Translations under genes and position numbers: made by a program
Origin: Planctomycetota bacterium
GTDB taxonomy: Bacteria > Planctomycetota > UBA1135 > UBA2386
Assembly: GCA_965223545.1 (NCBI GenBank)
Contig: OZ245006.1
Location: forward strand, 2,304,001-2,368,000
DNA length: 64,000 bases
Direction of reading: 5' to 3'
The notes under the pieces: generated by a model
Seen by the model: the letters and a program-made list of their open reading frames with translations, nothing else
Databases searched by the model: none
What the model was told of the DNA's origin: nothing
In this document: positions 3,125 through 48,936 of the stretch, in pieces
Layout: every line of letters begins with the position of its first letter
Numbering within the stretch: position 1 is the first letter of the stretch

Positions 3125-4210
3125 TCACGGGTGGTTGGTGTGCAGAATGAGACCACCGTCCAGCACGCCGGAGCTCGCGGACGCCGCGTTCGGGTCCAGC
3201 GAGTAGAGGTGCACGCACTGCGAGTTCGTCGACGGGTCGATTGGCACGTAGGTCTTGCGGCCGACACCAAGGCCGATGCCACCCGGCTGGGTGTTGTCCA
3301 GAGCCACGGCCTGCGAGTAGAAGCTCTGGCCGATCAGGCTGGTGTTGTAGGCGATCGGGTCGATCGACAGGAACGCGAAGCCGGTGCCATCCGTGTTGCC
3401 CATGAAGACGTCGGTGACCGGGATGAGCTCGAGCGTGCTGCACAGGCCGCCGATGGCGATCGACTGCGCGGTGGTGCCGAGCAGCATCGTCGCCGGCGAG
3501 TTCGGCGCGGCGCGGGAGATGTCAAAGGCCGACGACATCTTGGTGCCGTGGTTGAAGAACTCGACGTGGTTGTTCATGCCGCGAGTCTGGCCCGTGGTCA
3601 CGCACGACGAGTTACCGGTGCTCCCGGTGGCGCCCTGCATCACGGACAAGACGACCGGGTCGGCGTCCATCGGGTAGGACTTGCCGGCCTGGTCGTTGGC
3701 CCAGACGCGGACCTCCCAAACCAGGTCGGTGCCGGTGGCCTGCTTGCCGAGGTAGCTCCATTGCGAGTCGAGCCACAGGATCGCCCAGTTCGACTCGGAC
3801 TGCGGCGCTAGCGCCGGCGCGGCCTGCCAGTCGGGGAAGCTGACGCGCTTGCGCGAGATCACCACGGTCTTGGTGCCGGCGGTGTAGTTGCCGTCGAAGT
3901 TGCTGGTCGCGGTGGCGAGATCGCCCTCACCCATCACCAGCTCCATGTCGAGCGTGCGCGCGACGTAGTTCGGATCGAACGGCATCAGGCCGTCGCGACG
4001 GAAGGCGATGCGGTTGCGGTCGGCCTTGGAGCCCCAGTTGGTGGCGTCGATCTGCTGGAATCGCAGCAGCGCTTCCTTGCCGATCAGGTCGACGGACAGC
4101 GACCCTTCGGTGCTCTCGTAGCCCGCGGGGCTCGAGGTGAAGTGATCGGGCTGAGCGATGACGGGGGTGGCGATCGTCGCCACCACCGCGAGATGGAGGA
4201 GGTTACGCAT
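3125..4210 (-). CDS. Secreted hypothetical protein
   Basis: 361-aa ORF with signal peptide ending VIAQ; contains the shared motif SLIGQSFYSQAVALD. Confidence 0.75.
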   Translation of the reverse strand: MRNLLHLAVVATIATPVIAQPDHFTSSPAGYESTEGSLSVDLIGKEALLRFQQIDATNWGSKADRNRIAFRRDGLMPFDPNYVARTLDMELVMGEGDLATATSNFDGNYTAGTKTVVISRKRVSFPDWQAAPALAPQSESNWAILWLDSQWSYLGKQATGTDLVWEVRVWANDQAGKSYPMDADPVVLSVMQGATGSTGNSSCVTTGQTRGMNNHVEFFNHGTKMSSAFDISRAAPNSPATMLLGTTAQSIAIGGLCSTLELIPVTDVFMGNTDGTGFAFLSIDPIAYNTSLIGQSFYSQAVALDNTQPGGIGLGVGRKTYVPIDPSTNSQCVHLYSLDPNAASASSGVLDGGLILHTNHP

Positions 4211-4581
4211 GGTTTCCTAGTTGTCAGGTGTGTGGGGTGCGAGGCGGCCTCGCGGCGCCCCGGCTCGGGTGAGCGCGGAGAAGCCTAGCGCAGACTCGCG
4301 CGTTGGCTAGGGGGTCGAGGCCGGGTTTGGGCCTCAAATCGGGAGTTTGGCCCCGGTCGTCGGGTTGCCGTCGGGCCGTCGGAACGCCGACAACCGCCAC
4401 GGCGCGGACCGAAACCCCCCGTGGATTCAGATCTTGATCTCTCTCCTGTGGCCGTTGCGGGGCTCCCACCGACGGGCACCGGACGGAGGCTCGGCTGCAA
4501 AAAAATCGACCCCTCAGCCGGGTCACGCGACACACATGGCGCGCGACCGACTCGAGTCGCTGCTCACTGGGTGGAGTCCCC

Positions 4582-5919
4582 TCAGTATTGCACTCGCATC
4601 CACGGGGTCTCGAAGAGGCTAACGGTGTCATCGACTCCAACCTTCCCATCGAGGGCGCCAACCCCCGTCCCAGGAATCGCCGGAAAGATGAATCGAATCT
4701 TGTCGCCCGCGCCGACCGGTTTCACGTCGATGATTGTTGGCGGCACGATCGGCGATGGAGAGCTGAACAACGCCGGAGATGCATGCGCGATCCACAGGGC
4801 AGCGGTGCCCGAGACCTGCGATCGGAGCGGCACGTAGTACCGGTCCGCCCCCAAGTCCGCGCGATACAACCCCGAGCTCAGCAGTGGGCTACCGCCGGGC
4901 GCACGATGGCTACCGATCATCTTGCGAACTCGATCCGATCGAGGATCGATGATGCACACTGCGTCACACTTGTCCGTGGACAAGAACTTGATCTTGATCG
5001 AGACCCGGTACCCGGTCGGAGTCAGAAGTGGATCGACCCTCCAACCTTGCCCCTTCGGCTCAGCGACCATCAACGGGTCGGTCGGATGGTCCGACGCGAA
5101 CACGATGGCGCCGACGCTCTCGTCCCAGGCGAGGCCGGAGATCTCCCCGGTCGGCGGAACACCGAAAGCGCTGTGGCCATCGAGCCACACGGTCGGCTCC
5201 GTCCATTCGGATCCTGTCCACTCCGTGAACAGAACATCGTTTCCGTCAACAGGTCCGATGTTGGTCCATTGGTTCGTCGCCGCCGCCGCGGACCCGTTGG
5301 TTACGGAGAAGATGAGCTTCGTACCCCCCCATGGCTCGGGATCGTTGATCAGCATGGGGATGTAGGACTCCAACGCGACCGTGTCCGGCTGCGTGTTTGG
5401 TTGCGTGACAAGGCTGATGTCCGAAACGTCGTTCGCGGTGAGCAGCTGGTCGATGTACTCGGGCGGCAGCCCGGTGCTCCCGTCGACGACGTACTGGAAG
5501 TGAATCCCGGCGCGATCCGAGGCCGGCTGCTGGTTCAGGTAGGAACCAGCTTCGCCGGTGGTGGACGGATCGACCGAGAGCAGCACCGCGATCCACCCGT
5601 CAGCGGTCGACGGGGCTTGCAATCGCCCCTTGTCCACGGGAATGAAGACATGATTGGTCGACAGCGCATCGATCTCGATCTGCTGACCATTGCTCCACGG
5701 CAAGATCCTGAAGTCGGGATCTTGCGCCCCCGGAGCAGGAAACGGCAGCGGCGACGCGCCGATGTCGTTCCTGTTCTTCAGCCAGCCGGGCAGCGCATCT
5801 CCCGGATCGATGAGACCCTCGTCGTTCGCCGTCGTTGGGGACACGACCACCGTCTGTGGCATGTCGTAGAGGTTGCCGTATTCCTGCGGCAGGAGAGCTA
5901 GGCAAAGCTCGAGTAGCAT
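4582..5919 (-). CDS. Secreted hypothetical protein downstream of the kinase
   Basis: 445-aa ORF with short hydrophobic N-terminus MLLELCLALLPQ; starts 3 nt after the kinase stop, with an AAGGAG SD upstream. Confidence 0.7.
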   Translation of the reverse strand: MLLELCLALLPQEYGNLYDMPQTVVVSPTTANDEGLIDPGDALPGWLKNRNDIGASPLPFPAPGAQDPDFRILPWSNGQQIEIDALSTNHVFIPVDKGRLQAPSTADGWIAVLLSVDPSTTGEAGSYLNQQPASDRAGIHFQYVVDGSTGLPPEYIDQLLTANDVSDISLVTQPNTQPDTVALESYIPMLINDPEPWGGTKLIFSVTNGSAAAATNQWTNIGPVDGNDVLFTEWTGSEWTEPTVWLDGHSAFGVPPTGEISGLAWDESVGAIVFASDHPTDPLMVAEPKGQGWRVDPLLTPTGYRVSIKIKFLSTDKCDAVCIIDPRSDRVRKMIGSHRAPGGSPLLSSGLYRADLGADRYYVPLRSQVSGTAALWIAHASPALFSSPSPIVPPTIIDVKPVGAGDKIRFIFPAIPGTGVGALDGKVGVDDTVSLFETPWMRVQY

Positions 5920-5922
5920 CGG

Positions 5923-8433
5923 TCACTCCTTCTCGGTTGGGGGTGGGTCTTCGATTGTGAAACTGCGCTGCGCTTCCCTTTCCGCCAACAGCGTGAAGAG
6001 GTGCCGCACGGCCTCGTGCGACTCGCGGCTGAGGTCCTCCGGCAAGGCGTCCGCCACCTGGCGCAAGTACTCCGGACTCTGGGGAGCTCGCTCGCACACG
6101 AGCTGGAACACAAACTCGTCCAGCACTGCCTCTCCCGAGCTGATCGCGATCGCAGCACGGCGATCTCTCTCGTAGCTTTCTCGGCGCGTGGACTGACCCG
6201 GCGGTAGCTCGGAGAGGGCCTGGGCAAACGCGTTTGCCGCGCGTTCAGCACTGTCTCTTGCATCCTCACGCCGCCCCGCCCAGATGCGGCCGATCGCTTC
6301 GCTCAACGCAACGTAGCCCTCGCCCTCCCATCGCAGATGGGACAGCTGCGGCTCTCCGGCCCGGCGCGCGGCGCGCGCCGCCTCCTCGAAGTCGCCTCCG
6401 TCGGAAAGCGCCGCATCCGCCAGGGCCTTCGCGAGAGCAAGTGCGGCTTTGGCGCCGCGGGGACGAATCTCCAGTGCATGCCGCGCGCTCTGCGCAGCCC
6501 TCTCGAAGTCTCCCGTCCTGCTGTAGCAGACTGCCAGGTTGGTGTGCGCGTTGTAGTAGCGCGGCGCCCGAGCTGCGACAGCCTCCAAGGGGAGGATGGC
6601 GTCCGCCCACTGCTGCATCAGAGTCAGCGCCGTGCCTTCGAGATACTGCAACGAGACCGACGGTTGGCCGTGCTCGGCTTGTAGCTTGCGGATTTCGACG
6701 TAGACGCTCGGTGCCCGCGCGGACTTGTAGAGCGCCAGCTCGACGGTCAGCCGGAGCTGGCGCACTCGCAGATCCGATCCAGCGACTCGGAGGTGATCGA
6801 ATGCGCGCCGGTAGGCATCGGCGACTCCGCTTCGCAACAGCCGATGTGCCTCCAAGAAGTGCTCCACCTCGGTTTGCGGCTCCGGAGTCTGAGGTCCAGG
6901 TTCCCGTCCAGCCACGGAAACATCAGCCAGGGCTCGGGCATACGGCGTCCCCAACACGTCGGCCACCGCCGCGAAATCCTCCGCAGCCCCCGCCGGATCG
7001 TGGTGATCCTGGCGGAACGCTCCCCGATAACTCCGGACGATCACGTCGTCGGGCACTAACCGCACCGCAGAGTCGAGCAACCGCTCCATGCGGTGGCGTT
7101 CGATGGCATCACCGATTTCGGGGTTCTTCCCGAGCGTCAAGTTCGGGATCAGCTGGCGAAAGACCGCCAGCATCTGGCCGGTGGCGAGGGACCGGGTTCG
7201 TTCGCTCCACGCGACGAAGCCCAGGACTCCAGCCAAAGCCCCCGCACCCAGGACACCCGCCTGCAGGTGGCGCGCCCTCGACACCGCGCGCCACGTCCGG
7301 GCAACGGGCCCCCGGCGCCGCGCGCTCACCGACCGGAAGTCCAGGAACGCGTTCAGGTCCGCCGCCAACGCGGCCGCGGTGGGATAGCGGTCGGCGGCGC
7401 GCCGCTCCATGCCGCGCTCGAGGATCGCAACCAAGTCGCGCGGCAGACCGCGACATACCCGATCGGGAGGCGGCGGCGCCTGGCGCTGGAGCGCGGCGAT
7501 CACCTGCCGCACGTCCCCGTCGTACGGGGCGCGGCCGGTGACCAGGTGGTAGAGCGTCGCCGACAGCGAGTAGATGTCGAGGGCGGGACTCGGTTCGTGA
7601 CCCCCCTCGGCCTGCTCCGGCGCCATGTACTTCGGAGTGCCCAGCGTGGTGTCGCCGACGGTGAGGGTGGCATCCCCCAGCTGCGCCGCGATGCCGAAGT
7701 CGAGCAGCACCGCGCGGCCATCGCGCGCGATGAAGACGTTGGACGGCTTGACGTCGCGGTGGAGGACGCCGGCGTCGTGCACCGCGGCGAGGCCGTCGGC
7801 GAGCTCGGCGGCCCAACGCGCCGCCAAGCGCAGGAAGCCCTTGCCCAGCTCGGCACCGCTGCCGAGCCGTTCGCTGATCCACGCGGTCCCCACGTCGGCG
7901 CCGACCGTCGCCGCCCGCGCCTCGCGCTCGTCGAGCAGCGCCGCCATCGACACACCCTGCAGCAGCTCCATCACGAGGTAGTGGAGGCCCTGGTCGGTGC
8001 AGCCGCGGTCGAACACCGTGATGACGTTGGGATGCCGGATCTGCGCCATCGCCTGCGCCTCGCGCAGGAAGCGGTCCGCGGCCACGGAGGCGTCGAGGAG
8101 GTGCGGGTGCAGCACTTTGACCGCGACCGGGCGCGCCAGCTCGAGGTCGACGGCACGGTAGACCGCGCCCATCGCGCCGGCCCCGATGCGCGCCTCGGCG
8201 CGATAGCGATCGGCAAAGCACAAGCCCTCGAGATCGCCAACGGCACCGACGCCGCCTCGCCAGGCGTCGACGCGCGTTCCCATCGCCAACGCCTCCCGCA
8301 GCGCCTCCAGCAGCTCGGGGTGGTCGGCGCAGACGTCGGCCAAGTCGGGATCGGCGCCGTTCTCGCGCAGCTCCAGCACGCGCTCGACCAGACCGGCCAG
8401 CGTGCCGTCGCGATCGTCGGCCGCGCCCTTCAC
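5923..8433 (-). CDS. Ser/Thr protein kinase with TM segment and C-terminal TPR region
   Basis: GAGAMGAVY, VAVK, HRDVKPSN, DFG and GTPKYMAPE motifs; TPR-like AHTNLAVCYSRTGDFERA. GTG start overlaps the ECF stop (GTGA). Confidence 0.92.
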   Translation of the reverse strand: MKGAADDRDGTLAGLVERVLELRENGADPDLADVCADHPELLEALREALAMGTRVDAWRGGVGAVGDLEGLCFADRYRAEARIGAGAMGAVYRAVDLELARPVAVKVLHPHLLDASVAADRFLREAQAMAQIRHPNVITVFDRGCTDQGLHYLVMELLQGVSMAALLDEREARAATVGADVGTAWISERLGSGAELGKGFLRLAARWAAELADGLAAVHDAGVLHRDVKPSNVFIARDGRAVLLDFGIAAQLGDATLTVGDTTLGTPKYMAPEQAEGGHEPSPALDIYSLSATLYHLVTGRAPYDGDVRQVIAALQRQAPPPPDRVCRGLPRDLVAILERGMERRAADRYPTAAALAADLNAFLDFRSVSARRRGPVARTWRAVSRARHLQAGVLGAGALAGVLGFVAWSERTRSLATGQMLAVFRQLIPNLTLGKNPEIGDAIERHRMERLLDSAVRLVPDDVIVRSYRGAFRQDHHDPAGAAEDFAAVADVLGTPYARALADVSVAGREPGPQTPEPQTEVEHFLEAHRLLRSGVADAYRRAFDHLRVAGSDLRVRQLRLTVELALYKSARAPSVYVEIRKLQAEHGQPSVSLQYLEGTALTLMQQWADAILPLEAVAARAPRYYNAHTNLAVCYSRTGDFERAAQSARHALEIRPRGAKAALALAKALADAALSDGGDFEEAARAARRAGEPQLSHLRWEGEGYVALSEAIGRIWAGRREDARDSAERAANAFAQALSELPPGQSTRRESYERDRRAAIAISSGEAVLDEFVFQLVCERAPQSPEYLRQVADALPEDLSRESHEAVRHLFTLLAEREAQRSFTIEDPPPTEKE

Positions 8434-9153: not shown

Positions 9154-10587
9154 TCAGCGCACTCGATCGTACTCCGGGTTGACCGCGCGTTCGCCCCAAC
9201 GCTGCACGACGGCGCGGAGGGCGGCGTCGGATTCAGGGTATTGCCCTAAGTCACCCGTCTCAACCATCCAGCGGGCGAGCCGCACCCGCATCTCGCCCAA
9301 GGCTTGCGCGTGCGCGGGGTCGTGGACCAGGTTGCGCGTCTCGTGTGGGTCGGTGTGCAGGTCGTACAGCTCTTCGCTCGGCCGGTGCGGTCCGGCGAAC
9401 CGCTTCTGCACGGAGTCGAGGCGGCCCCCGTCGTAGAGCTCTTTGAGGACGCGCATCGTCGGCCAATCGTCGCGGTACTGCGGCTGCAGGTATGGACGAT
9501 CGGTCATGAAGTTGCGGATGTACTTGTAGCGCGCCGTGACCACGGCGCGGATGCGATCGATCGTGTAGTCACAGCGATCCCGCGCCGCGACGAAGTGATC
9601 GCGGCGAAAGCCCTCCGCAAACACATCGCGACCGTGCATGTGCGGTGGCACGGCTATCCCCGCCAACGCCAAGGTGGTGGCGGCGAGGTCGAGGCCGCTG
9701 ATCAGGTCGTCCCGCACGACCCCCTCCGGCACGCCGGGGCCGGCGATGATGCACGGCACGCGGATGCCGCCCTCGTACAAGAACTGCTTGTGGCGCATCA
9801 AGCCCATGCCGTGATCGGAGAAGAAGAAGATCACCGTGCGCTCCAGCAATCCGTCGCGGCGCAGCGCGGCGACGATGCGGCCGACCGCGGCGTCGAGATC
9901 GAGGATCGAGTCGTAGTGCTTGGCGATCGCCTCGCGGAACGCGGGATGGTCGGGGTAGTACGGCGGCACGTCGACTGCTGCCGGGTCGACGACGGCCGGG
10001 GCCTTCGTCTTGCCACCCGTCATCTGGATCTGGCCGAAGAACGGCCGCGTTCCGGCAGCGGGATCGGCATTCCAACAGCGCCCGTCCTCCGCGCCGTGGA
10101 AGTTCATCCTCGCGTCGTACCAGTCGTAGAGCCGATCGACGTCGTAGACGAAGTTGTAGTGCAGCTTGCCCTTGTTGAAGGTGAAGTAGCGCGCCAACGC
10201 CAAGATCTCGGGGATCGTGCGCACGGCGAGGTAGTTGGGGTCCCACGCGTCCATCTCGATGCCGCGCCATTGTTCGAACGAGCTGTAGTGCTGGTGCGCG
10301 CCGATCGAGGTCTGGTGCATGCTGGTGATCACCGCCGACCGGGTCGGCGTGCACACCGGCGCGGGCATGTAGCAGCGCGTGAACCGCGTGCCGGCCGCGG
10401 CCAGCGCGTCGATGTGCGGCGTCTGGATCACTCGGTCGCCGTAGCAAGACATCCACGCGTTGGTGTCCTCGACGTAGATCCACAGGACGTTGGGACGATT
10501 CGCATCGTTGGGTAAGGTATCGGCCGGCGGCTGCGCTGCGGCCGGCAAGAGACTGAGAAGACAGCAGGCAACGACGATCGGCGGCAT
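9154..10587 (-). CDS. Sulfatase (Cys-type, formylglycine-dependent)
   Basis: RPNVLWIYVED, CTPTRS (CxPxR), GKLH, FSDHG, LYEGGIRVP and EELYDL motifs; signal peptide. Confidence 0.93.
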   Translation of the reverse strand: MPPIVVACCLLSLLPAAAQPPADTLPNDANRPNVLWIYVEDTNAWMSCYGDRVIQTPHIDALAAAGTRFTRCYMPAPVCTPTRSAVITSMHQTSIGAHQHYSSFEQWRGIEMDAWDPNYLAVRTIPEILALARYFTFNKGKLHYNFVYDVDRLYDWYDARMNFHGAEDGRCWNADPAAGTRPFFGQIQMTGGKTKAPAVVDPAAVDVPPYYPDHPAFREAIAKHYDSILDLDAAVGRIVAALRRDGLLERTVIFFFSDHGMGLMRHKQFLYEGGIRVPCIIAGPGVPEGVVRDDLISGLDLAATTLALAGIAVPPHMHGRDVFAEGFRRDHFVAARDRCDYTIDRIRAVVTARYKYIRNFMTDRPYLQPQYRDDWPTMRVLKELYDGGRLDSVQKRFAGPHRPSEELYDLHTDPHETRNLVHDPAHAQALGEMRVRLARWMVETGDLGQYPESDAALRAVVQRWGERAVNPEYDRVR

Positions 10588-10649
10588 GCGGGCGAGCTGG
10601 AGAGACAGAGTGGCGTGCAGCATTGCACGGCGCAGGCGAAGATGCCCCG

Positions 10650-11108
10650 ATGAAAGTCCTGTTGTCCCGACTCAGCAACGACCGCCACCGCTTGGTGGTC
10701 GAACGCGCCGGCGGCGACCGGATCGAGCGCGAGCTCGAGACCCGCAGCGTGCTGTTGCACGACCTCGTGCACTACGCCCTAGAGGCAGAGGCCGGTATGC
10801 AAGACGGCTTCTGGGGGTCACTGGCGTCCGGCATGGACTTCGACACCCTCCTGGCCGAGACCCAGAGCCCAGAGCTGCGCGGCATCCATTTGGCCGAATC
10901 GCTGGTCGGCCCGATGCAATCGGTCTGGAAGGGGCAGCTGTCCGTCGACCGATACGTCGAGACCGCCCGCCGCACTGCGCCGTTCGTCGACCGCTCGTTC
11001 GTCGACGGGGTCCTGCGCCGCATGCGCCACCTGTGGGGCCACTGGTGCGGCACGCCATTTCACGAAACCATGGAGCTCACCTGGCCGCCGCCGAAGGCGG
11101 GACGGTAG
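10650..11108 (+). CDS. Hypothetical protein (LLHDLVHYALE, HDxxH possible metal-binding motif)
   Basis: 152-aa ORF from ATG 10650; partially duplicated at 13304-13554. Confidence 0.7.
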   Translation: MKVLLSRLSNDRHRLVVERAGGDRIERELETRSVLLHDLVHYALEAEAGMQDGFWGSLASGMDFDTLLAETQSPELRGIHLAESLVGPMQSVWKGQLSVDRYVETARRTAPFVDRSFVDGVLRRMRHLWGHWCGTPFHETMELTWPPPKAGR

Positions 11109-11111
11109 GCC

Positions 11112-11436
11112 ACTTGGGCAGCACCTTGCGCTCTCACCCCATCGCCCGGGCAGCGCGCGAGCTGGAGGTGAGCGAGCGCCAGCTCAGCCGGCTGTTCCAG
11201 CGCCACGTCGGCCTCGCGCCCAAGACATTCCAGCGCGTTAGCCGCTTCCGCAGCTTGTTGCACACGATGCAACGGACGGGAGAGCTCGCTTGGACGCGTG
11301 CGGCCTACCACTGCGGCTTTGCCGACCAGCCGCACCTGTGTCGCGAGTTCCGCGGCTTCGCCGGGATCACGCCGAGCCAGTACGTACCAGCCGCGGCGCC
11401 CGACTACATGCCGTGGGCACCGAGAGAAGGCGAAGA
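11112..11436 (+). pseudogene. Orphan 3' (HTH) fragment of the AraC-family gene at 16792-17682
   Basis: Near-identical to 17285-17609 (HPIARAARELEVSERQL...CGFADQPHLCREFR...PDYMPWAPR); lacks the 5' half. Confidence 0.85.
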
Positions 11437-18583: not shown

Positions 18584-19114
18584 ATGGCAGGTGGCGGCGA
18601 CGAGAACGGGACGGATCAGCTGGCGCTTGCGTATGACGAGCTGCGCCGGTTGGCAGGGCGCTATCTGCGCCACGGCGGTGCCGACCAGACGCTGCAACCC
18701 ACGGCCTTGGTGCACGAGGCCTGGCTGCGACTCGCCGGCAACCGCGCTCTCGACGAGATCACCAGCAGCCACGTCGCCGCGCGCGCGGCGCGTGCCATGC
18801 GCCACGTGTTGGTCGACCGCGCGCGCCGGCGTGGATCGGCGAAGCGTGGAGGTGATTGGCAGCGCGTCGCGCTGGAGGCCGCGCCGCCACGGTCGGAAGC
18901 CACCGCACTGCTCGACGCGGTCGTCCTGAACCAGGCCATCGACGCGCTGGCGGCATCCCACGCCGAGCTCGCCGAGCTGGCCGAGCTGCGGCTGCTCGCC
19001 GGCCGGTCCCTGGCCGACGCTGCCGCGATCCTCGACTGGCCCCTTTCGACCGCCAAGAAGCGGTGGCAGTTCACCATCGCCTGGTTGGCGCGCGCGGTGA
19101 GGTCGGACGATTGA
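18584..19114 (+). CDS. ECF sigma factor (TIGR02999-like, kinase-associated)
   Basis: YDELRRLA...TLQPTALVHEAWLRL...AMRHVLVDRARRRGSAKRGG...TAKKRWQFTIAWL. Confidence 0.92.
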   Translation: MAGGGDENGTDQLALAYDELRRLAGRYLRHGGADQTLQPTALVHEAWLRLAGNRALDEITSSHVAARAARAMRHVLVDRARRRGSAKRGGDWQRVALEAAPPRSEATALLDAVVLNQAIDALAASHAELAELAELRLLAGRSLADAAAILDWPLSTAKKRWQFTIAWLARAVRSDD

Positions 19115-22100
19115 ACGAGGCGCGCGTCGTGGAGCTGTTCGCGGCGGCGCAGGGGCTGAGAGACGCCGAACGGCGTCGATTTTTGCAGCAGGCCTGCTCC
19201 GACACGCGCCTGCGCACCGAGGTCGAAGAGCTGATCGCCGCCTACGAGGACCTCCCCGCCGAGCTGCAGACCGACCGATCGCCCGCGGACCGGCTCTCCG
19301 GCCAGGGAGACCGCCTCGATCCACCCAGTACCGTCGGCCCTTACACCTTGCTACAACGCATCGGCGCCGGCGGCATGGGCGTCGTGTTCCGCGCGCGGCA
19401 GGAGCTTCCCAGTCGCACCGTCGCGCTCAAGGTCGTCCGCCCCACTGGAGCCGGCGGCGATTGGCTGCGCCGCTTCCGCACCGAGGTCGAGACTCTCGGT
19501 CGGCTACGCCACCCGGGCATCGCTCAGGTCCACGACGCGGGGATCGTCGGGGGCAGCCACGGCGACCAGCCTTGGTTCGCCATGCAGCTGGTCGAGGGCG
19601 TGCCGATCACCGAGTACGCCGAGCGCCATGGCCTCGACTGTCGTGCGCGGTGCGCCATGCTGGCGCGGGTCTGCGACGCCGTGCAGCACGCGCACGAGAG
19701 GGGTGTCGTCCACCGAGACCTGAAGCCCGCCAACATCCTCGTCGACGCTGACCCTGGCGAGCCACCGCAGCCGGTCGTTCTAGACTTCGGCATCGCGCGC
19801 CTGCTCGACCAAAGCGATGCGACCGCGCAGGATCTGACCGAGCAGCCGATCGGCACGCCGCCCTACATGAGCCCGGAGCAGCTCGGCGGTGACTGCGCCG
19901 TGGACGCTCGCTCCGATCTCTACTCGCTGGGGGTCCTGTTCTTCGAGCTGATCGCCGGTTGGCGGCCGCACGAGATGGACGGCCAGGGCTATCACGCGTT
20001 CGCGCGGCGCGTGGCACAGTGCGAGCCGCCTCGACTCGGCACGCACGACGCGCGGCTGCGCGGCGACCTGGAAGCCATTGCGGGGATGGCGCTGGCCAAA
20101 GACCGAGACCGCCGCTACGCCTCGGCACGGGCGATGGCGGATGACCTGCGGCGCTGGCTCCGGCACCTGCCGGTGAAGGCGCGCCGGCCGAGCGTTTGGT
20201 ATCGCGCCCGCCGCTTCGCTCGACGCAACCGCGCGCTGGTGGGTGGCGCCGCCGCGACTCTGGTCGCGATCACCGTCGGCGTCGTGGCGACTGCCTTGTT
20301 TGCGCTGCGCGCCGTGCAAAACGAGCGCGCCGCCGCGCAACGCGAGTACGCGGTGCGCATGTCGCAAGCGCTGGCGATGATGAGCCGCGATCCGGTGGGT
20401 GCCGAAGAGCTGCTGGACGGCGCCGCTCCGGGCCTCCGCGGCTTCGAGTGGCACTACGCGCGGGCGCGCGTCGACAGCAAGCGGCACGCCTTGGTGGACG
20501 CGTTCTCCACTGCCGAGGCCGCCTGGCACGAGCAGTGCGCGGTGGCGTTTCCCGCCGACGGGCCGCTGTACGCGCGCACCGACTCGGAAGGGCTCCGGCT
20601 GATCGACGTGCGCACCGGCACCGTGCGCAAGATCCTGCGGGCAGGAGGCGCCCTCGAACATCCCGCCCTCAGCGAAGACGGCACCCGCGTGGCCGCGCGC
20701 CTGCGGAACGGATCCCAACGCAGCCTGCTGGTCTGGGACGCCGCCTCCGGCCGAGAGCTGTTGGCGCTGGGCCTGCCCGCCGAACACCTCGGTCCGTTCT
20801 CGCTGCGCGGCGACGGGCGCATCGCCGCGTTCGCGCGCTGGCGCGACGGCGGCGCGATCGTCGACGTCGACCGCGGCACCGTCATCGAGCTGCCACCGGC
20901 GCCCGAGGTCGTGCACGGACCGCTGCCGGCACCCAGCTTCGTCGCCGACGGACATCGAACGCGCATCGGCGCGCGCGTCTACGACACCCACTCAGGGCAG
21001 TTGGTGGCGGAAGACGCCACCGACGCGGCGGTGTGGCAGATGACGCGCACGCGGAAGGGGACACTGGCGACCGCACAATGGCGGCGACGGACGATCGAGC
21101 TCGCCGAGGCGTCGGCCGCGACCCCGAAGCGTTCTTTGACAGGACTGCGCAGCCACGCGCACGAGATGGTGTTCTCGGCCGATGGACGCCGACTGGCCGC
21201 TGCCGACTACGCCGGAGCCGTGCTGGTGTGGGACGTCGAACTCGGAGCGGTGCTGCGCGGGTTTCCCGACGCCGCCAAGTGGTTGGCGTTCGACGAGAGC
21301 GGGACCCGCTTGGCCGCATGCACCAGCACCGGCCCGGTGGAGTGGGACCTGACCGACCGCGGCGCGCGGGTGCTCGCGGCACACCGAGCCTACGGCCTCC
21401 TGGTGGCGTACTCGCCCGACGGCGCGCTCCTGGCCTCGATGGACACCGACCGGCGCGTCGTGCTGTGGGATCCGCTGACCGGCACGCCGCTGGCCACCAT
21501 CCAGTCGGCCAACCGCGGCCAAGCGCTCCGCTTCTCGGAGGACGGCCGGCGGCTGATCCTGGCGGGACCTCCCGACCAGGGCTGGGACGTCGCCACTGGC
21601 GCCCCGGCGCCGGTCGACGCACCCTTCGCCGCCCCCGGTCGACCCACGGCCGCGGCGCGCGAGGTCGGTGCGTGGGATGCGGCCAGCGACGACGGCGCTC
21701 TCCACGCGGTTGCGAGCAGCACCCACCTCTTCGTGCGCAACGCCGACGGCGATCCCCTGATCACGCTGGAGCTCCCGCCGGCGAACGGCGGCGGCCCCGG
21801 CCGCGCCGCCAGGCTGCGCGCCGCATTGGCGGAGCTCCACATCCTCTACGCCCCGAGCCTCGCCATCGACCCCCACCACCGCTGGGTCGCCGCCGGCCGC
21901 AAGGACGGGTCGCTGAACGTCGTCGATGCGAGCAGCGGCGAGGTGCGCACCGTGCACCGGCACTTCGGACCGGTCTACGGCGTCGCGTTCAGTCCCTGTG
22001 GGCGCCGGATCGCCACCGCAGGCAACGACGGCGCGGTTCGCCTGTGGGACACCGAGTCGCTCGAGCACGTCGCGGAGCTGCGCGGCCACGACACCTACGT

Positions 22101-22398
22101 GCGCGCCGTCGCATTTCGCCCCGACGGCCAACAGCTGGCGACCACGTCCGGCGACCTGACGGTGCGGCTGTGGGACGCCGCGCCGGATGGAGTCGTGCGC
22201 GCGGCGGCGCGCGCGCGGGCCGCCGCGCGAGAGCGGGCGCGGGTCGCGATCCGCACGGAGCTGCGGGGAGGTCGGGCACCGGCGGAATTGGCGCGGAGGG
22301 TGCGCGCGGATCCCGAGCTCTCGGAGGAGCAGCGGGTCGTGGCCCTGCAGGCGTTGCTGCTCGAGAGCCAAGCCGCGCGGTGGACCCGGGCGCGCTGA
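19111..22398 (+). CDS. Ser/Thr protein kinase with TM segment and WD40 repeats
   Basis: GAGGMGVVF, VALK, HRDLKPAN, DFG, GTPPYMSPE; WD40 repeats (GHDTYVRAVAFRPDGQQLATTSGDLTVRLWD). TTG start overlaps the ECF stop. Confidence 0.93.
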   Translation: MNEARVVELFAAAQGLRDAERRRFLQQACSDTRLRTEVEELIAAYEDLPAELQTDRSPADRLSGQGDRLDPPSTVGPYTLLQRIGAGGMGVVFRARQELPSRTVALKVVRPTGAGGDWLRRFRTEVETLGRLRHPGIAQVHDAGIVGGSHGDQPWFAMQLVEGVPITEYAERHGLDCRARCAMLARVCDAVQHAHERGVVHRDLKPANILVDADPGEPPQPVVLDFGIARLLDQSDATAQDLTEQPIGTPPYMSPEQLGGDCAVDARSDLYSLGVLFFELIAGWRPHEMDGQGYHAFARRVAQCEPPRLGTHDARLRGDLEAIAGMALAKDRDRRYASARAMADDLRRWLRHLPVKARRPSVWYRARRFARRNRALVGGAAATLVAITVGVVATALFALRAVQNERAAAQREYAVRMSQALAMMSRDPVGAEELLDGAAPGLRGFEWHYARARVDSKRHALVDAFSTAEAAWHEQCAVAFPADGPLYARTDSEGLRLIDVRTGTVRKILRAGGALEHPALSEDGTRVAARLRNGSQRSLLVWDAASGRELLALGLPAEHLGPFSLRGDGRIAAFARWRDGGAIVDVDRGTVIELPPAPEVVHGPLPAPSFVADGHRTRIGARVYDTHSGQLVAEDATDAAVWQMTRTRKGTLATAQWRRRTIELAEASAATPKRSLTGLRSHAHEMVFSADGRRLAAADYAGAVLVWDVELGAVLRGFPDAAKWLAFDESGTRLAACTSTGPVEWDLTDRGARVLAAHRAYGLLVAYSPDGALLASMDTDRRVVLWDPLTGTPLATIQSANRGQALRFSEDGRRLILAGPPDQGWDVATGAPAPVDAPFAAPGRPTAAAREVGAWDAASDDGALHAVASSTHLFVRNADGDPLITLELPPANGGGPGRAARLRAALAELHILYAPSLAIDPHHRWVAAGRKDGSLNVVDASSGEVRTVHRHFGPVYGVAFSPCGRRIATAGNDGAVRLWDTESLEHVAELRGHDTYVRAVAFRPDGQQLATTSGDLTVRLWDAAPDGVVRAAARARAAARERARVAIRTELRGGRAPAELARRVRADPELSEEQRVVALQALLLESQAARWTRAR

Positions 22399-22410
22399 GG
22401 CTTCCTATCG

Positions 22411-22426
22411 TGGCGGTGGCGCTGCA
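22411..22426 (+). promoter_or_regulatory. Possible sigma-54 -24/-12 promoter
   Basis: TGGCGGTGGCGCTGCA has GG and GC at the canonical 12-nt spacing, 28 nt before the tRNA-like element; a weak match in GC-rich DNA. Confidence 0.25.
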
Positions 22427-22453
22427 CAGTGGCTAACGTCCACGTTCACGTTC

Positions 22454-22528
22454 TCCGGGGTAGATCAGAGGTGAGATCGCTCGGCTCGGACCGAGAGGGC
22501 GCTGGTTCGAATCCAGCCCCCGGACCCA
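22454..22528 (+). ncRNA. tRNA-like RNA with a 6-nt anticodon loop
   Basis: Cloverleaf TCCGGGG-TA-GATC-AGAGGTGA-GATC-G-CTCGG-CTCGGA-CCGAG-AGGGC-GCTGG-TTCGAAT-CCAGC-CCCCGGA-C-CCA; all four stems are fully Watson-Crick paired. Confidence 0.8.
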
Positions 22529-22544
22529 TTTCGACCCAACGACG

Positions 22545-24866
22545 GTGACCATGCCCGGCGACGACAGGACGACCCCATCGGGCGCCAATCCTGGCTACGC
22601 CGCATACCAGCTCACCAAGGCGCTGGACACTCGCGACACCCACGCCGATCCGGAGACCCGCCGTCGCGCGGCAGCGAGGGTGACTCGGTGGGAGACGGTG
22701 TTGCGCGACCTTCTCACCGGCGCTGTCGACCACGGAAGCCGCGCCCCGCTCGAGAACGTCCCCGAGTGGGTCACCCTCGAGGTGATGACCGGCGGCTTCG
22801 CCACCGGCAATCTGGTCGCCGGGGGGCCGCTGCAACCGCACGAGCTCGCCCTCCTCGAGGAGCTCTCGAAGCCACCGAAAGGCCGCGAACGCGCCGCGTT
22901 GAACGCGCACTTCGTGAGCGAGCCCGGGCTCGCCGAGTTGGGCGAGCGTTTGCGCGCGGGAACGTACGACGTCACGGTCCCTGAGGAAGGCGCCCTGTTG
23001 ACCGTCGCGTGGCTGGTGCGGCACGGTCACGTCACGCAGGCCCACGCGCTCTTGGATCAGCTGCTGCCCTTATTCGACCGCGTGCGATTCTACCCCGTGC
23101 CGCGTTCGGGGCCTCCGCCCCGCGGACCGCACGTCCACCTGCAGACCGTCGGCGACACCGTCGCCGACCTCGATCAGATCCAGCCCAATCGCAAGGTGCT
23201 GGCGCAGAAGGAGGCGGTCGAGATCTGGGCTCCGTTCCATGACCGCGTGGTCTCGATGTTCTGCGAGACGGTCGTCGACGACTGGCCGTGCCGGCACTAT
23301 CCGCCGGACTGGAAGGAGCGTGCGCGCGCCCTGATCGACGAGTACTCGACGCTGCGCGCGCAGCACGTGCTCTGCAGCAAGCCGGATCGAAGAGGAGGAC
23401 ACCAGCTGCAGCTCCGCACGCTCCTGCAGCAATGCGCAGAAGACCCCGCCGCCCTCGACGGGCGCGCCGCGGGCATGGTCCGCCGGATCCTGCGCTGTTT
23501 CTCGCGCAAGCGGGGAGCTCCGGGGTCCGCCGCGTGCGCGCAGGCGCGCGCGCGGCAAGCCGAGGATGTCCGCGCCCCTGTCTTTGCCGCCATCGCCCAG
23601 CTCGTCGTCGCACGCCTCAACCGGCATCCCGGCGACGCAGCCCTGGCGGACGTGTAGGTGTTGACCGCGGCGGTGAGCGAGGTCGAAGCGCGGAGCGACG
23701 TCCCTGCGGGCACTCCGATCCCGCCGTGCATCGGCCGCAAGGCGGAACGCTGCTTGTCGGACACGCCGGTCGCCTTGATCCGAAAGGGCCTGATCACGTC
23801 GGGAGACACGCTGGCCCGGATCCTGCCACAGCTCAGTGCGGCAGTCAGCGGTGCCGCCATCGACGATCCAGAGCTGCGACCGCTGTACGCGGCGGTCTAC
23901 CGCGCCTTCCGCAGACGCCGATCACTCCTGCTGCTGAATCTGCAAGAGCAAGTCCAACTCGAAGAGCTGCCCTGGATCGCCGTGACCGCGCAGTTTCGCA
24001 CCCGCAGCCGCACCGGACGCGATCTGGCGCGGGAGACGCTCGGTGAGGCCGCGTTGCTGACCCTGACGTCGTTCCCCCACGCGCTCGTGCCCAACAAGCT
24101 CTTGCAGGAGTTTCGCGCGCTGAGCCGTGCCGCCGGCATCGACCTGGCTCTGGTCGACGAGCTTGCGGCCGACATCTTCGCGGGCACTTTCACCGGCAAG
24201 TTCACCGCTGCTCTCGAACGGGCCGCCCAACTGCTCGATGGATCGATCTACGCCACCTACTACGAGATCGACTACCCAGCGGCCGTGGCCGCCGTCGCCA
24301 GAGACCGTTCCCCCCGGCGCAGCCTCTTTCGCCGCCCGACCGACCGGCCCCCCAACGATGCCCTCGCCCGCCTGTGCGCAGCGCGCGCCGGGGTCGAACT
24401 CGACCGTTGGGCGCCGGCGATCAACGGCATGGTCATCGAGCAGCAGCAGATCCTCACCACGCAGAATCTCGCGGTTCTCGTCTCGGGGCTCGACCTGCAA
24501 GAACCGCTACGGCCGCACCTCGACGGCATGGCCAAGGGCTGCTTCACCTGGATCTGCAAGCGCCTCCAGGTCAAGCCGACCGATTGGCACGATCGGCTGA
24601 TCGCGACCAAGAACGCCGCCTACGCATGGCGTCAGATGCTGTTCTATCTCGCGCTGCAACCATCGGGCGCGACGGATGAGTTCCTGCACTGGGCAGACGG
24701 GGTCCTCGGCCAACAGCGACCGGAGTTCGGCGCGCGCTTCCGCCCCGCGTTGGATGGGCTGGTGCTCGTCGCCGGTGGCCAGCTCGACGACTCTCGGCGC
24801 AACCGAGTGCCGGGATTCCTGGGATGGTGCGACGGCACGCATTGGCTGTTGGAAGAGTCGGGCTAG
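22545..24866 (+). pseudogene. ~773-codon hypothetical protein gene interrupted by one in-frame TAG (23655-23657): nonsense allele, sequencing error or readthrough
   Basis: ORFs 22545-23657 and 23658-24866 are contiguous in one frame (GAC GTG TAG GTG TTG); no clear SD before the second; protein-like composition throughout. Confidence 0.7.
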
Positions 24867-24993: not shown

Positions 24994-25329
24994 GTGCCCA
25001 ACTACCTCTGCATCCAGCGAAGCCAACCCGGCGGACCATGCGACCAGCCGTCTCCCGCCCAGATGGAGGAGCTGTACGCTGCGTTCCTCGCCTGGAAGGA
25101 CAAGTTCCAAAAGAACATCGTCGACATGGGTGGCAAGCTCGGCGGCGGAAGCGTGGTCACTGCGGACCGCGCGACGGACGGCCCGTTCGTGGAGGCCAAA
25201 GAGATCGTCGGCGGATTCATGATCGTCGCCGCGGACAGCCTGGAGGAGGCGATCGCAGTCGCTCGTGAGAGCCCCGGAGTCGCCATGCCGGGGTCGTCGG
25301 TAGAGGTGCGGGAGATCCACACTCCTTGA
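24994..25329 (+). CDS. YciI/DGPF-family protein
   Basis: TDGPFVEAKEIVGGFMIVAADSLEEAIAVA...VEVREI; GTG start at 24994. Confidence 0.9.
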   Translation: MPNYLCIQRSQPGGPCDQPSPAQMEELYAAFLAWKDKFQKNIVDMGGKLGGGSVVTADRATDGPFVEAKEIVGGFMIVAADSLEEAIAVARESPGVAMPGSSVEVREIHTP

Positions 25330-26585
25330 CCGCGCCCTCGCTTCCCGAGCACTTCTTCCGGCACGAGTACGGGAAGCTCGTCGCCACGTTGGTGCGCCGC
25401 GCCGGCGCGCAGCACTTCGAGCTGATCGAGGACGCCACGCAGTCGGCCTTGCTGATGGCCGTCGACTCCTGGCCGCGGACGGGGTTGCCGGAGAACCCAT
25501 CGGCTTGGCTCTTTCGAGTTGCGCACAACGATCTCATCGGACAGCTGCGCAAACGCGCGCGCGAGCGCCGCCTTCTCGAGCAGAGCCCGCGGAGGGACGT
25601 CCAGTCCGACGACCCATCCGAGCTTGGCGATGAGGAAATGCAGGACGACCTGCTGCGGATGTTGTTCGCCTGCTGCGACGACACGATCGCGGTCGAATCC
25701 CAGCTCGTGCTGGCCCTCAAGACCCTCTGCGGTTTCAACATCCGAGAGATCGCGCTGCGCCTGTTCATTACCGAGGCGAACGCCTACAAGCGCTTCGATC
25801 GGGCCCGGCGCCGCCTGCGCGAGCGTCCCCCTCCCGGGGGCAAGCTGCAAGACGAGCGTTGCGCATCGCGACTCCCCGCGGTGCACAAGGTCCTCTACGT
25901 CCTGTTCACCGAAGGACACCTCTCCGTCCGGTTGGGAGAGTCCTTGCGGACCGAGCTCTGCGCCGACGCGATCCGGCTGGCGGAGATCCTGGCAGAGCAC
26001 CCGGCCGGCCAAGTTCCCGAGACGTTCGCGCTGTTGGCTCTGATGCACTTCCACGCGGCGCGCATGACCGCTCGCCAAGACGCATCCGGCGGACTGCTCC
26101 TCCTCGAAGAGCAAGACCGCGAGCTCTGGGACCGCGCGCGGATGCACACTGGGCTCGAGTGGCTGGCCAAGTCGGCACAGGGCAGCGCGTTCTCCCGATA
26201 CCACGCCGAGGCCGGCATTGCGGCGGAGCACTGCCTCGCCCCTTCGTTCGACGAGACGCGCTGGGACAGGGTCGTGGAGTGCTACCGCTTGCTGGAGAAG
26301 ACCGCCCCGTCCCCGATCCACAGGCTCAACTGCGCCGTGGCGGTCGCCGAGTGGAAGGGGCCGGCCGCGGGTCTCGCGACGCTCGAGGGGTTCGTGCCTC
26401 CGACTTGGTTGGCCAGTTCATACCTCTGGGCCGCGGTGATGGCGGACTTGCATCGACGGTGCGGAGACGCGGAGAGGGCGCGCGACTATCGCGAGGCAGC
26501 TCTGGACGCTGCCCCCACGCAGGCGGTGAGGCAACTGTTGGAACGACGACTCGCGTACGTCGCCGCCGACGGCGAGCGAGGCTGA
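25326..26585 (+). CDS. ECF42-type sigma factor with C-terminal TPR-like extension (DUF6596)
   Basis: FFRHEYGKLVATL...DDLLRMLFACC...VLYVLFTEG...LLLLEEQDRELWD; overlaps the YciI gene stop. Confidence 0.88.
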   Translation: MTAPSLPEHFFRHEYGKLVATLVRRAGAQHFELIEDATQSALLMAVDSWPRTGLPENPSAWLFRVAHNDLIGQLRKRARERRLLEQSPRRDVQSDDPSELGDEEMQDDLLRMLFACCDDTIAVESQLVLALKTLCGFNIREIALRLFITEANAYKRFDRARRRLRERPPPGGKLQDERCASRLPAVHKVLYVLFTEGHLSVRLGESLRTELCADAIRLAEILAEHPAGQVPETFALLALMHFHAARMTARQDASGGLLLLEEQDRELWDRARMHTGLEWLAKSAQGSAFSRYHAEAGIAAEHCLAPSFDETRWDRVVECYRLLEKTAPSPIHRLNCAVAVAEWKGPAAGLATLEGFVPPTWLASSYLWAAVMADLHRRCGDAERARDYREAALDAAPTQAVRQLLERRLAYVAADGERG

Positions 26586-48859: not shown

Positions 48860-48936
48860 TGGTCGGAGCGACTGGATTTGAACCAGCGACCCCTACAACC
48901 CCATTGTAGTGCGCTACCAGGCTGCGCCACGCTCCG
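48860..48936 (-). tRNA. tRNA-Pro(GGG)
   Basis: CGGAGCG-TG-GCGC-AGCCTGGTA-GCGC-A-CTACA-ATGGGGT-TGTAG-GGGTC-GCTGG-TTCAAAT-CCAGT-CGCTCCG-A-CCA; C1-G72, A73. Confidence 0.97.

Follow-up and report, generated by a model that had tools for sequence, protein, structure and literature searches.

Several described systems come close to the locus reported here. The thrS leader is bound by ThrRS, t-elements are tRNA-like processing signals, and type III toxin-antitoxin systems carry RNA repeats directly upstream of one gene. RNA-repair loci harbor the tRNA mimics YrlA and b7a-tRNA, and allo-tRNAs, as set out in the accessible part of PMC5389517, have 8/4 or 9/3 acceptor branches and serine or alanine identity. 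We found no description of the present RNA-gene pair in the literature searched, which did not extend to Burroughs and Aravind 2016 and its supplements, where the family may be listed. The accessible parts of PMC6514570, PMC8007984, PMC13092985, PMC8421152, PMC9897764, PMC11090510, PMC7609411 and PMC3399842 do not describe the pair either.

The element lies in a 64-kb stretch of planctomycete DNA, called the window below. ARAGORN calls it 'tRNA-???', and it matches the Rfam tRNA model RF00005 at 57.6 bits (E 8e-10; gathering score 29), as high a score as the window's ordinary tRNA-Pro(GGG) reaches. It has a 7-bp acceptor stem with U1-A72 and C73, a 4-bp D stem with a D loop of 8 nt against the family's usual 7, and a 5-bp T stem with the T loop UUCGAAU (Table 1). 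A first-pass annotation had given the same coordinates, the same four paired stems and the same 6-nt CUCGGA loop, and the sequence itself, ARAGORN and RF00005 all agree with it. That annotation had also called for a check of the reads for a 7-nt loop. Contigs from two short-read runs, X3 (depth 33, possibly the source run) and X4 (depth ∼450, another sample of the same study), show the 6-nt form with no other letters and no gaps, which rules out an assembly indel; the identical CUCGGA loop also occurs at two other loci (L035 and L125). The element was rightly held not to be a tRNA-Pro: it carries U1-A72/C73 in place of C1-G72/A73, the genome has its own Pro tRNAs, and the nearest canonical bodies are tRNA-Asn, so that a tRNA-Pro pseudogene is likewise ruled out. 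Indeed, the genome's own tRNA set is complete, including Pro CGG, GGG and UGG, and the element is therefore an extra. It is present as a single copy with no second att-like piece in the genome. Its folding energy is unexceptional (MFE z −1.2) and no distinct switch was seen when it was folded with its flanks; it is the family evidence, not free energy alone, that singles it out. A family model, R1, scores the element at 88.2 bits and the next best tRNA of this genome at 66.9 bits. A sigma-70 scan of 22200–22700 found nothing, and the single sigma-54-like match is not conserved and is probably due to chance. None of the window's flanking genes recurs beside homologues of the partner gene. Elsewhere in this genome (G000), a second tRNA-Arg(CCU) call at C1:3830886–3830963, whose 3′ half matches C1:6881227–6881303 and whose 5′ half is unpaired, is likely an integration remnant, judging from these sequences.

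Table 1. Features of the RNA-gene unit and its surroundings, in window coordinates
Feature	Position	Strand	Basis or remark
Upstream flank: ECF sigma factor and kinase-WD40 gene	18584-22398		
Sigma-54-like -24/-12 match	22411-22425	+	similar match in 2/73 upstream regions
tRNA-like RNA: tRNA-Asn-like body, U1-A72, G47, C73, CCA	22454-22528	+	family model R1, 88.2 bits
Anticodon loop CUCGGA, 6 nt	22485-22490	+	on a 5-bp anticodon stem
Variable loop AGGGC, G47 = 22499	22496-22500	+	family signature, against canonical U47
Encoded CCA	22526-22528	+	sequence
Partner gene, 773 codons	22545-24866	+	start GTG 22545 (16 nt after the CCA end) or ATG 22551; uncharacterised all-helical family of ∼780 aa
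In-frame amber TAG, codon 371	23655-23657	+	GTG directly after (23655-23660)
Downstream flank: YCII protein and ECF-DUF6596 sigma factor	24997-26585		
Ordinary tRNA-Pro(GGG)	48860-48936	-	A at position 32

Homologues of the downstream gene place the element in a family. Of the best 80 of 152 genome loci, four had no upstream DNA, and 73 of the remaining 76 carry the RNA body directly upstream of the gene. We built an RNA model from 64 copies, which enter into this count but had originally been located by ARAGORN and pattern matching; it scores family members at 79.8–100.7 bits and this genome's ordinary tRNAs at no more than 67. A search with the RNA pattern returned 47 metagenome loci, all of which lead into the gene (44 by tblastn and the other three by an in-frame N-terminal motif; the genes of L099 and L119 are truncated). 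Among 29 RNA-model hits examined phylum-wide, 23 are tRNA-Asn and three are family RNAs, each of the three before the gene, and all six actinomycete plasmid loci fetched (L162–L167) carry a diverged RNA copy. A family RNA without the gene was never found. In the other direction the association is looser: no RNA was detectable before the gene at five loci (L060, L075, L176, L178 and L185) and before the fragment L182, and an unbiased phylum sample has the RNA at six of nine near-complete genes. Two loci end tRNA arrays. At L009 (5986–6915) the gene follows a nine-tRNA array of ordinary-looking tRNAs and no family RNA, and at L174 an array upstream of position 1393 ends in a family RNA and then the gene. 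Linkage is thus one-way, tight from RNA to gene and looser from gene to RNA, and it is near certain that the element is part of a real, conserved RNA-gene unit. The unit extends over at least eight named phyla, is also found on plasmids of actinomycetes, and has cultured carriers in Pseudomonas, Achromobacter, Massilia and Janthinobacterium. Eight loci bear tandem RNA copies (L022, L028, L040, L052, L079, L164, L168 and L172), with three copies in L164. The RNA persists beside a broken gene in this window and at L099, L119 and L184.

Base pairing in the RNA is maintained throughout the family. Across 64 copies, 99.3% of alignment cells in stems are paired and 12 of 21 pairs have changed on both sides; none of 500 shuffles scored as high, a control that relatedness inflates, and slid controls fell far below. 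Together with the linkage, this bears out the proposal that the tRNA mimic is conserved and belongs to one module with the gene behind it, and the predicted covarying cloverleaves with abnormal loops do stand upstream of homologues. The 6-nt loop, on the other hand, does not define the family: among 65 distinct copies the anticodon loop has 7 nt in 54, 6 nt in nine, 5 nt in one and 4 nt in one. The 54 seven-nt loops present 21 triplets, corresponding to 11 amino acids and UGA. With the metagenome set added there are 25 anticodon triplets, and GUU is absent from all 85 seven-nt loops (54 + 31). Shortened loops could be read as decay, but nine of ten short-loop loci have an intact gene and we reject that reading.

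What is fixed lies outside the anticodon. All 65 distinct copies have C32, U33, G30, G46, G47 and, at position 73, a pyrimidine (the last also in 41 of 41 in the metagenome set), and U1-A72 is found in 63 of 65. Mapped onto a tree built from 70 intact proteins, changes number 24, 20, 17 and 11 at positions 35, 36, 37 and 34 and nine in loop length, against none at positions 30, 32, 33, 46 and 47. Free D-loop and T-loop positions changed 15–17 times, about as often as the anticodon positions, and drift and diversifying selection are for that reason inseparable here. G47 separates the family from host tRNAs, 28 of the 29 parsed tRNAs of this genome having U47. Body identity is 85% across at least eight named phyla, compared with 83% for tRNA-Asn within one phylum. 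CCA is encoded in 31 of 65 copies. Two clades depart from the common pattern. One has C1-G72/U73 (L003, L168, L172 and L177), and the actinomycete form has C1-G72/G73, no CCA, a G-rich T loop and A18. In the actinomycete copies, D-loop position 18 and T-loop positions 54, 55 and 58, which we take to be tertiary partners in tRNA, change jointly, which points to a retained L-shaped elbow. All clades share one face, formed by the D stem, the upper end of the anticodon stem and the variable loop.

The partner protein, with its stop read as X, has 1319 homologues of ∼780 aa, and the family forms 1704 clusters at 50% identity. Homologue names, among those checked, are 'hypothetical protein', and ESM Atlas matches are unnamed hypothetical clusters only. 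The distribution of the gene is patchy: it is found in 2 of 41 relatives, in 13 of 401 genomes of the host's own phylum, in 3 of 401 from the phylum to which an actinobacterial MAG belongs, and on seven plasmids. Searches of viral contigs and phage records matched neither the RNA nor the protein. Pfam, NCBIfam and PADLOC have no family for the protein (best PADLOC E 0.009), and PDB sequences gave no match. A structure predicted from 143 sequences is almost entirely helical (pLDDT 95.7, pTM 0.92). Searched as a whole 768-aa model, it had no Foldseek match at E ≤ 0.001 in the pdb and viral sets, and the best VIA-align Z was 7.5, over ∼50 residues of an N-terminal hairpin (6.1 with a first model). 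The predicted fold is thus novel-looking, on comparisons of the whole 768-aa model and not of single domains, which fall short of establishing newness. Neither sequence nor whole-model searches found a nuclease fold or a clear catalytic motif, and Foldseek and VIA-align matched the whole model to no transferase fold. Invariant residues cluster in the segments RRRRS, ELPW, VEExAADIF, NGxxIEQQQ and KNxAYAWRQ (A4 consensus) and include a basic patch, R446/R448/R449/S450; the median net charge is +7. These clusters are consistent with RNA binding, though they are not proof of it. One family member, P0271, is 1569 aa long and joins a kinase/TPR part upstream of a whole family protein; it may represent a read-through across the RNA.

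In the window itself, the first-pass annotation had placed a gene of ∼773 codons 16 nt downstream of the RNA. The position stands, and the frame is interrupted by an in-frame amber codon. The amber stop is genuine: it is unchanged in the contigs of X3 and X4 and also appears in those of X5 and X6 (depth 2–3, two other studies). It falls in a column that varies among 26 homologues (S 13, G 6, T 3, E 2, A 1, R 1) and, by the secondary structure of the predicted model, in a long linker between two protein halves. Of 104 strongly conserved residues the window protein retains 102, in line with intact homologues. The variable column and the retained residues suggest that the nonsense change is recent or that a split is tolerated, and this copy of the protein has probably been recently inactivated or split by the stop; with the GTG after it, translation of the two halves could be coupled, as in a split gene. 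Programmed read-through or recoding of TAG was considered and rejected, as TAG ends 2042 of 7389 long frames; the genome (91% complete) has no match to PylRS (TIGR02367). Nor is the amber codon conserved in homologues; in two other genomes that had carried a '1 TAG' flag, the gene as aligned contains no stop. An earlier suggestion of frameshift suppression by the altered loop is not supported, for 54 of the 65 distinct copies have loops of 7 nt and the gene has an amber codon and no frameshift.

The ends of the RNA and the placement of the start codon point in different directions. A pyrimidine occupies position −1 in 98 of 110 RNAs and a purine position −2 in 99 of 110, the preference of RNase P. 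C74-C75 is kept in 24 of 25 Pseudomonadota copies compared with 4 of 16 Planctomycetota copies, the pattern expected of a CCA end finished by the host. The first in-frame start lies at a median of 19 nt after N73 and follows N73 in 85 of the 90 rows that could be scored (the motif pattern missed in the other 20 of the 110). In five of six actinomycete loci an ATG stands 1–3 nt after N73. Five planctomycete loci (L018, L022, L048, L052 and L067; element ∼6906–7004) have no in-frame start other than an ATG within the D loop, and a GGAG of the acceptor stem stands 7 nt ahead of this ATG. In L067 the spacer is 12 nt longer and the frame is kept, and L018, L048 and L067 have no second RNA copy. Translation from inside the D loop would make the cloverleaf part of the coding sequence, as the N-terminus of the protein, and cutting out the RNA would remove the start codon. 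Loci with such a start are related, three of them grouping on the protein tree, and may reflect one event; excision and a cis role may also both hold.

There is no conserved third gene; the widely shared clusters are shadow frames of the partner gene itself. Flanking genes are mostly housekeeping, with no defence islands. The unit stands beside Hen1 in L028–L030 and behind EF-G paralogues in L011 and L072. The proposed connection to Ro60/RtcB RNA repair is weakly supported: RNA-repair genes adjoin 3 of 80 genome loci and, within 3-kb flanks, none of the 47 metagenome loci, and in this genome the rtcB-rtcA pair lies 1.3 Mb from the unit. Where it occurs, the association is close. L005 has the unit in an RNA-repair operon with rtcB and rtcA; L040 has rtcR, Ro60, a YrlA-like RNA and rtcB around it; and L068 has Ro60, rtcB, rtcA and a second rtcB. 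The two RtcB genes of L068, at 3716–4948 and 9926–11131, flank the unit, and the RtcB of L005 (3699–5648) carries an intein. Three loci in 80 compares with a rough expectation of 0.19–0.56 (P 0.001–0.02), an enrichment that is overstated because the three fall in one clade of the tree.

We favour, tentatively, an RNA that is excised, takes no part in decoding and is bound by the protein in a response to tRNA or translation stress. The unit would be a horizontally spread pair of RNA and protein, the RNA having descended from a tRNA-Asn-type body whose decoding identity was lost. RNA and gene would be transcribed together from a nearby promoter, and host tRNA-maturing enzymes would then cut the RNA out, by RNase P at the 5′ end followed by 3′ trimming and CCA addition, after which it would remain uncharged or at least outside decoding. 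The protein would ignore the anticodon and bind the RNA by its core, made up of the D stem, the variable loop with G46-G47 and the upper end of the anticodon stem, where C32-U33 lie. By analogy with Ro60 and Y RNAs, the complex may serve as a tRNA-shaped decoy or cofactor in the response to damaged tRNAs or stalled ribosomes. The free anticodon, the RNase P-like ends, the tandem copies and the stress-gene contexts argue for this reading; the few RtcB loci, the genes without RNA and a functionally uninformative fold argue against it, as does the abutment of RNA and translation start, which fits a cis role. More speculatively, the complex may be a new kind of bacterial ribonucleoprotein in which the protein has a new fold and the RNA, read by its core and G47, is used on ribosomes or damaged tRNAs without codon reading (for rescue, as a decoy or as a sensor), the cloverleaf also serving as its own translation switch, down to the D-loop starts.

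The main rival, a cis element in the mRNA leader that governs translation of the gene, strikes us as rather unlikely. The RNA would be a protein-bound tRNA-mimic operator or a t-element-like processing signal at which cleavage creates the end of the translatable mRNA, and the protein's true substrate a cellular tRNA, recognized independently of its anticodon. The RNA is always 5′ of the start and close to it, never downstream; its confinement to loci with the gene, the D-loop ATG with its GGAG in five loci and the frame-keeping 12-nt insert of L067 all suit such a role, and 3′ cleavage at the five actinomycete loci with an ATG just behind N73 would yield a leaderless mRNA. An operator, however, needs no CCA, yet the encoded CCA/C74-C75 tracks host phylum; tandem copies reach up to 350 nt upstream (L164), far from the start; and genes without the RNA exist, with the D-loop starts perhaps a single event in related loci. 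The same arrangement of one or several tandem RNAs directly upstream of one gene could instead be an RNA antitoxin or defence module, in which the protein harms cell or phage, probably via tRNA or the ribosome, and the mimic holds it in check until cleaved or displaced. The patchy spread (13/401, 2/41 and seven plasmids), the unrelated flanks and the broken genes beside persisting RNAs, here and at L099, L119 and L184, agree with this, but intact-looking genes without RNA are hard to reconcile with a strict antitoxin, and the lack of a PADLOC family, the housekeeping flanks and the failure to find a nuclease fold or clear catalytic motif leave it unlikely.

We consider it quite unlikely that the RNA is a charged tRNA, whether an allo-tRNA-like miscoder or an aminoacyl donor for a non-ribosomal reaction carried out by the protein. 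Its 7/5 geometry, T loop, C32-U33, mostly purine 37 and CCA are canonical. Positions 36 and 37 tend to go together (G-G in 18, U-A in 18, mixed in 6 of 42), which is suggestive of the link seen in real tRNAs, but among independent pairs the association does not reach significance (median p 0.25). Loops of 4–6 nt occur in 11 of 65 copies, with intact genes. Synthetases blind to the anticodon rely on G3-U70, a long variable arm or G-1, none of which the family has; its discriminator, moreover, varies by clade (C or U with U1-A72, U or G with C1-G72), and no transferase fold was matched. Charging through body determinants does have a precedent in allo-tRNAs with 35 different codons (PMC5389517, accessible part). 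Finally, the element might be a decayed tRNA pseudogene, an integration scar or an assembly error with no connection to the gene. The amber-broken gene and unremarkable MFE would fit, but the reads confirm the letters, there is no second copy or att-like piece, linkage and covariation extend across the family, and the protein keeps nearly all of its conserved residues. We regard this as highly improbable; for the family decay is refuted, although this one copy may now be idle.

The unit joins a tRNA-like RNA family with a free anticodon to one dedicated, structurally uncharted protein. In it nature has run an experiment on what counts in a tRNA apart from decoding, and the cultured carriers make it open to immediate testing. 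It also bears on annotation. ARAGORN labels family RNAs as Lys, Arg, Gln, Trp, Thr, Ser, Leu, Pro, Gly, Ile, Cys, SeC and Pyl, and mislabelled copies can distort tRNA counts and inferences about the genetic code; the combination of G47, U1-A72 and a pyrimidine at 73 serves as a marker. Calls of tRNA-SeC (UCA) or tRNA-Pyl occur at L027, L032, L174 and L137/L184.

The family shares with canonical tRNAs the 7/4/5/5-bp stems, the T loop and CCA, but not a 7-nt loop with a conserved, identity-matched anticodon. Its nearest canonical body, tRNA-Asn(GUU), accounts for most of the phylum-wide model hits (23/29) and shares U1-A72 and C2-G71, whereas the family never has GUU and carries a pyrimidine instead of G73 and G47 instead of U47. 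Allo-tRNAs resemble it in their conserved body, highly diverse anticodons and mobility, and some are translation-inactive and lie near toxin-antitoxin genes; the family RNA differs in being 7/5 and fully paired, in its short variable loop and in having a single, fixed partner gene (comparison with the accessible part of PMC5389517). The cryptic tRNA L-arrays in the available part of PMC8421152 are likewise extra, horizontally spread tRNA genes tied to translational stress and rtcB, and the array ends at L009 and L174 recall them, but their tRNAs are mostly charged and keep their anticodons. The Bacillus cereus pseudo-tRNA tRNAOther is confined to a single lineage, and no comparable partner gene was found for it in the accessible part of PMC3399842. 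Like the thrS operator and t-elements, the RNA is a tRNA-shaped element directly 5′ of a start codon; unlike them, it is a complete cloverleaf with CCA, often tandem, and tied to one gene across phyla. With type III toxin-antitoxin systems it shares the arrangement of RNA repeats upstream of one gene, but the RNA is a cloverleaf instead of a pseudoknot, and Pfam and PADLOC detect no ToxN, TenpN or CptN nuclease. The b7a-tRNA/band-7 pair is set apart by its partner, a band-7/SPFH protein in place of the ∼780-aa all-helical protein found here. RtcB adjoins the present unit at 3 of 80 genome loci and at none of the 47 from metagenomes. No band-7 family was found by Pfam among 117 + 74 + 19 neighbouring ORFs (the nearest one or two per side). 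Ro60 (Rsr) with the Y RNA YrlA offers a tRNA-mimicking RNA with a helical RNA-binding protein, a tie to RNA repair and a proposed decoy role (10.1101/312249 and PMC7790460, accessible parts). The partner has no TROVE or vWA hit in Pfam, and these domains are absent from the Foldseek and VIA-align listings of the whole 768-aa model; the element matches RF00005 only, not RF02553, and has an open acceptor end with CCA as opposed to the closed acceptor loop of YrlA. By analogy, and as far as the available parts of 10.1101/312249 and PMC7790460 describe them, the unit would work most like these tRNA-mimic partners of RNA-repair loci, YrlA and b7a-tRNA, while departing from both in defining features.
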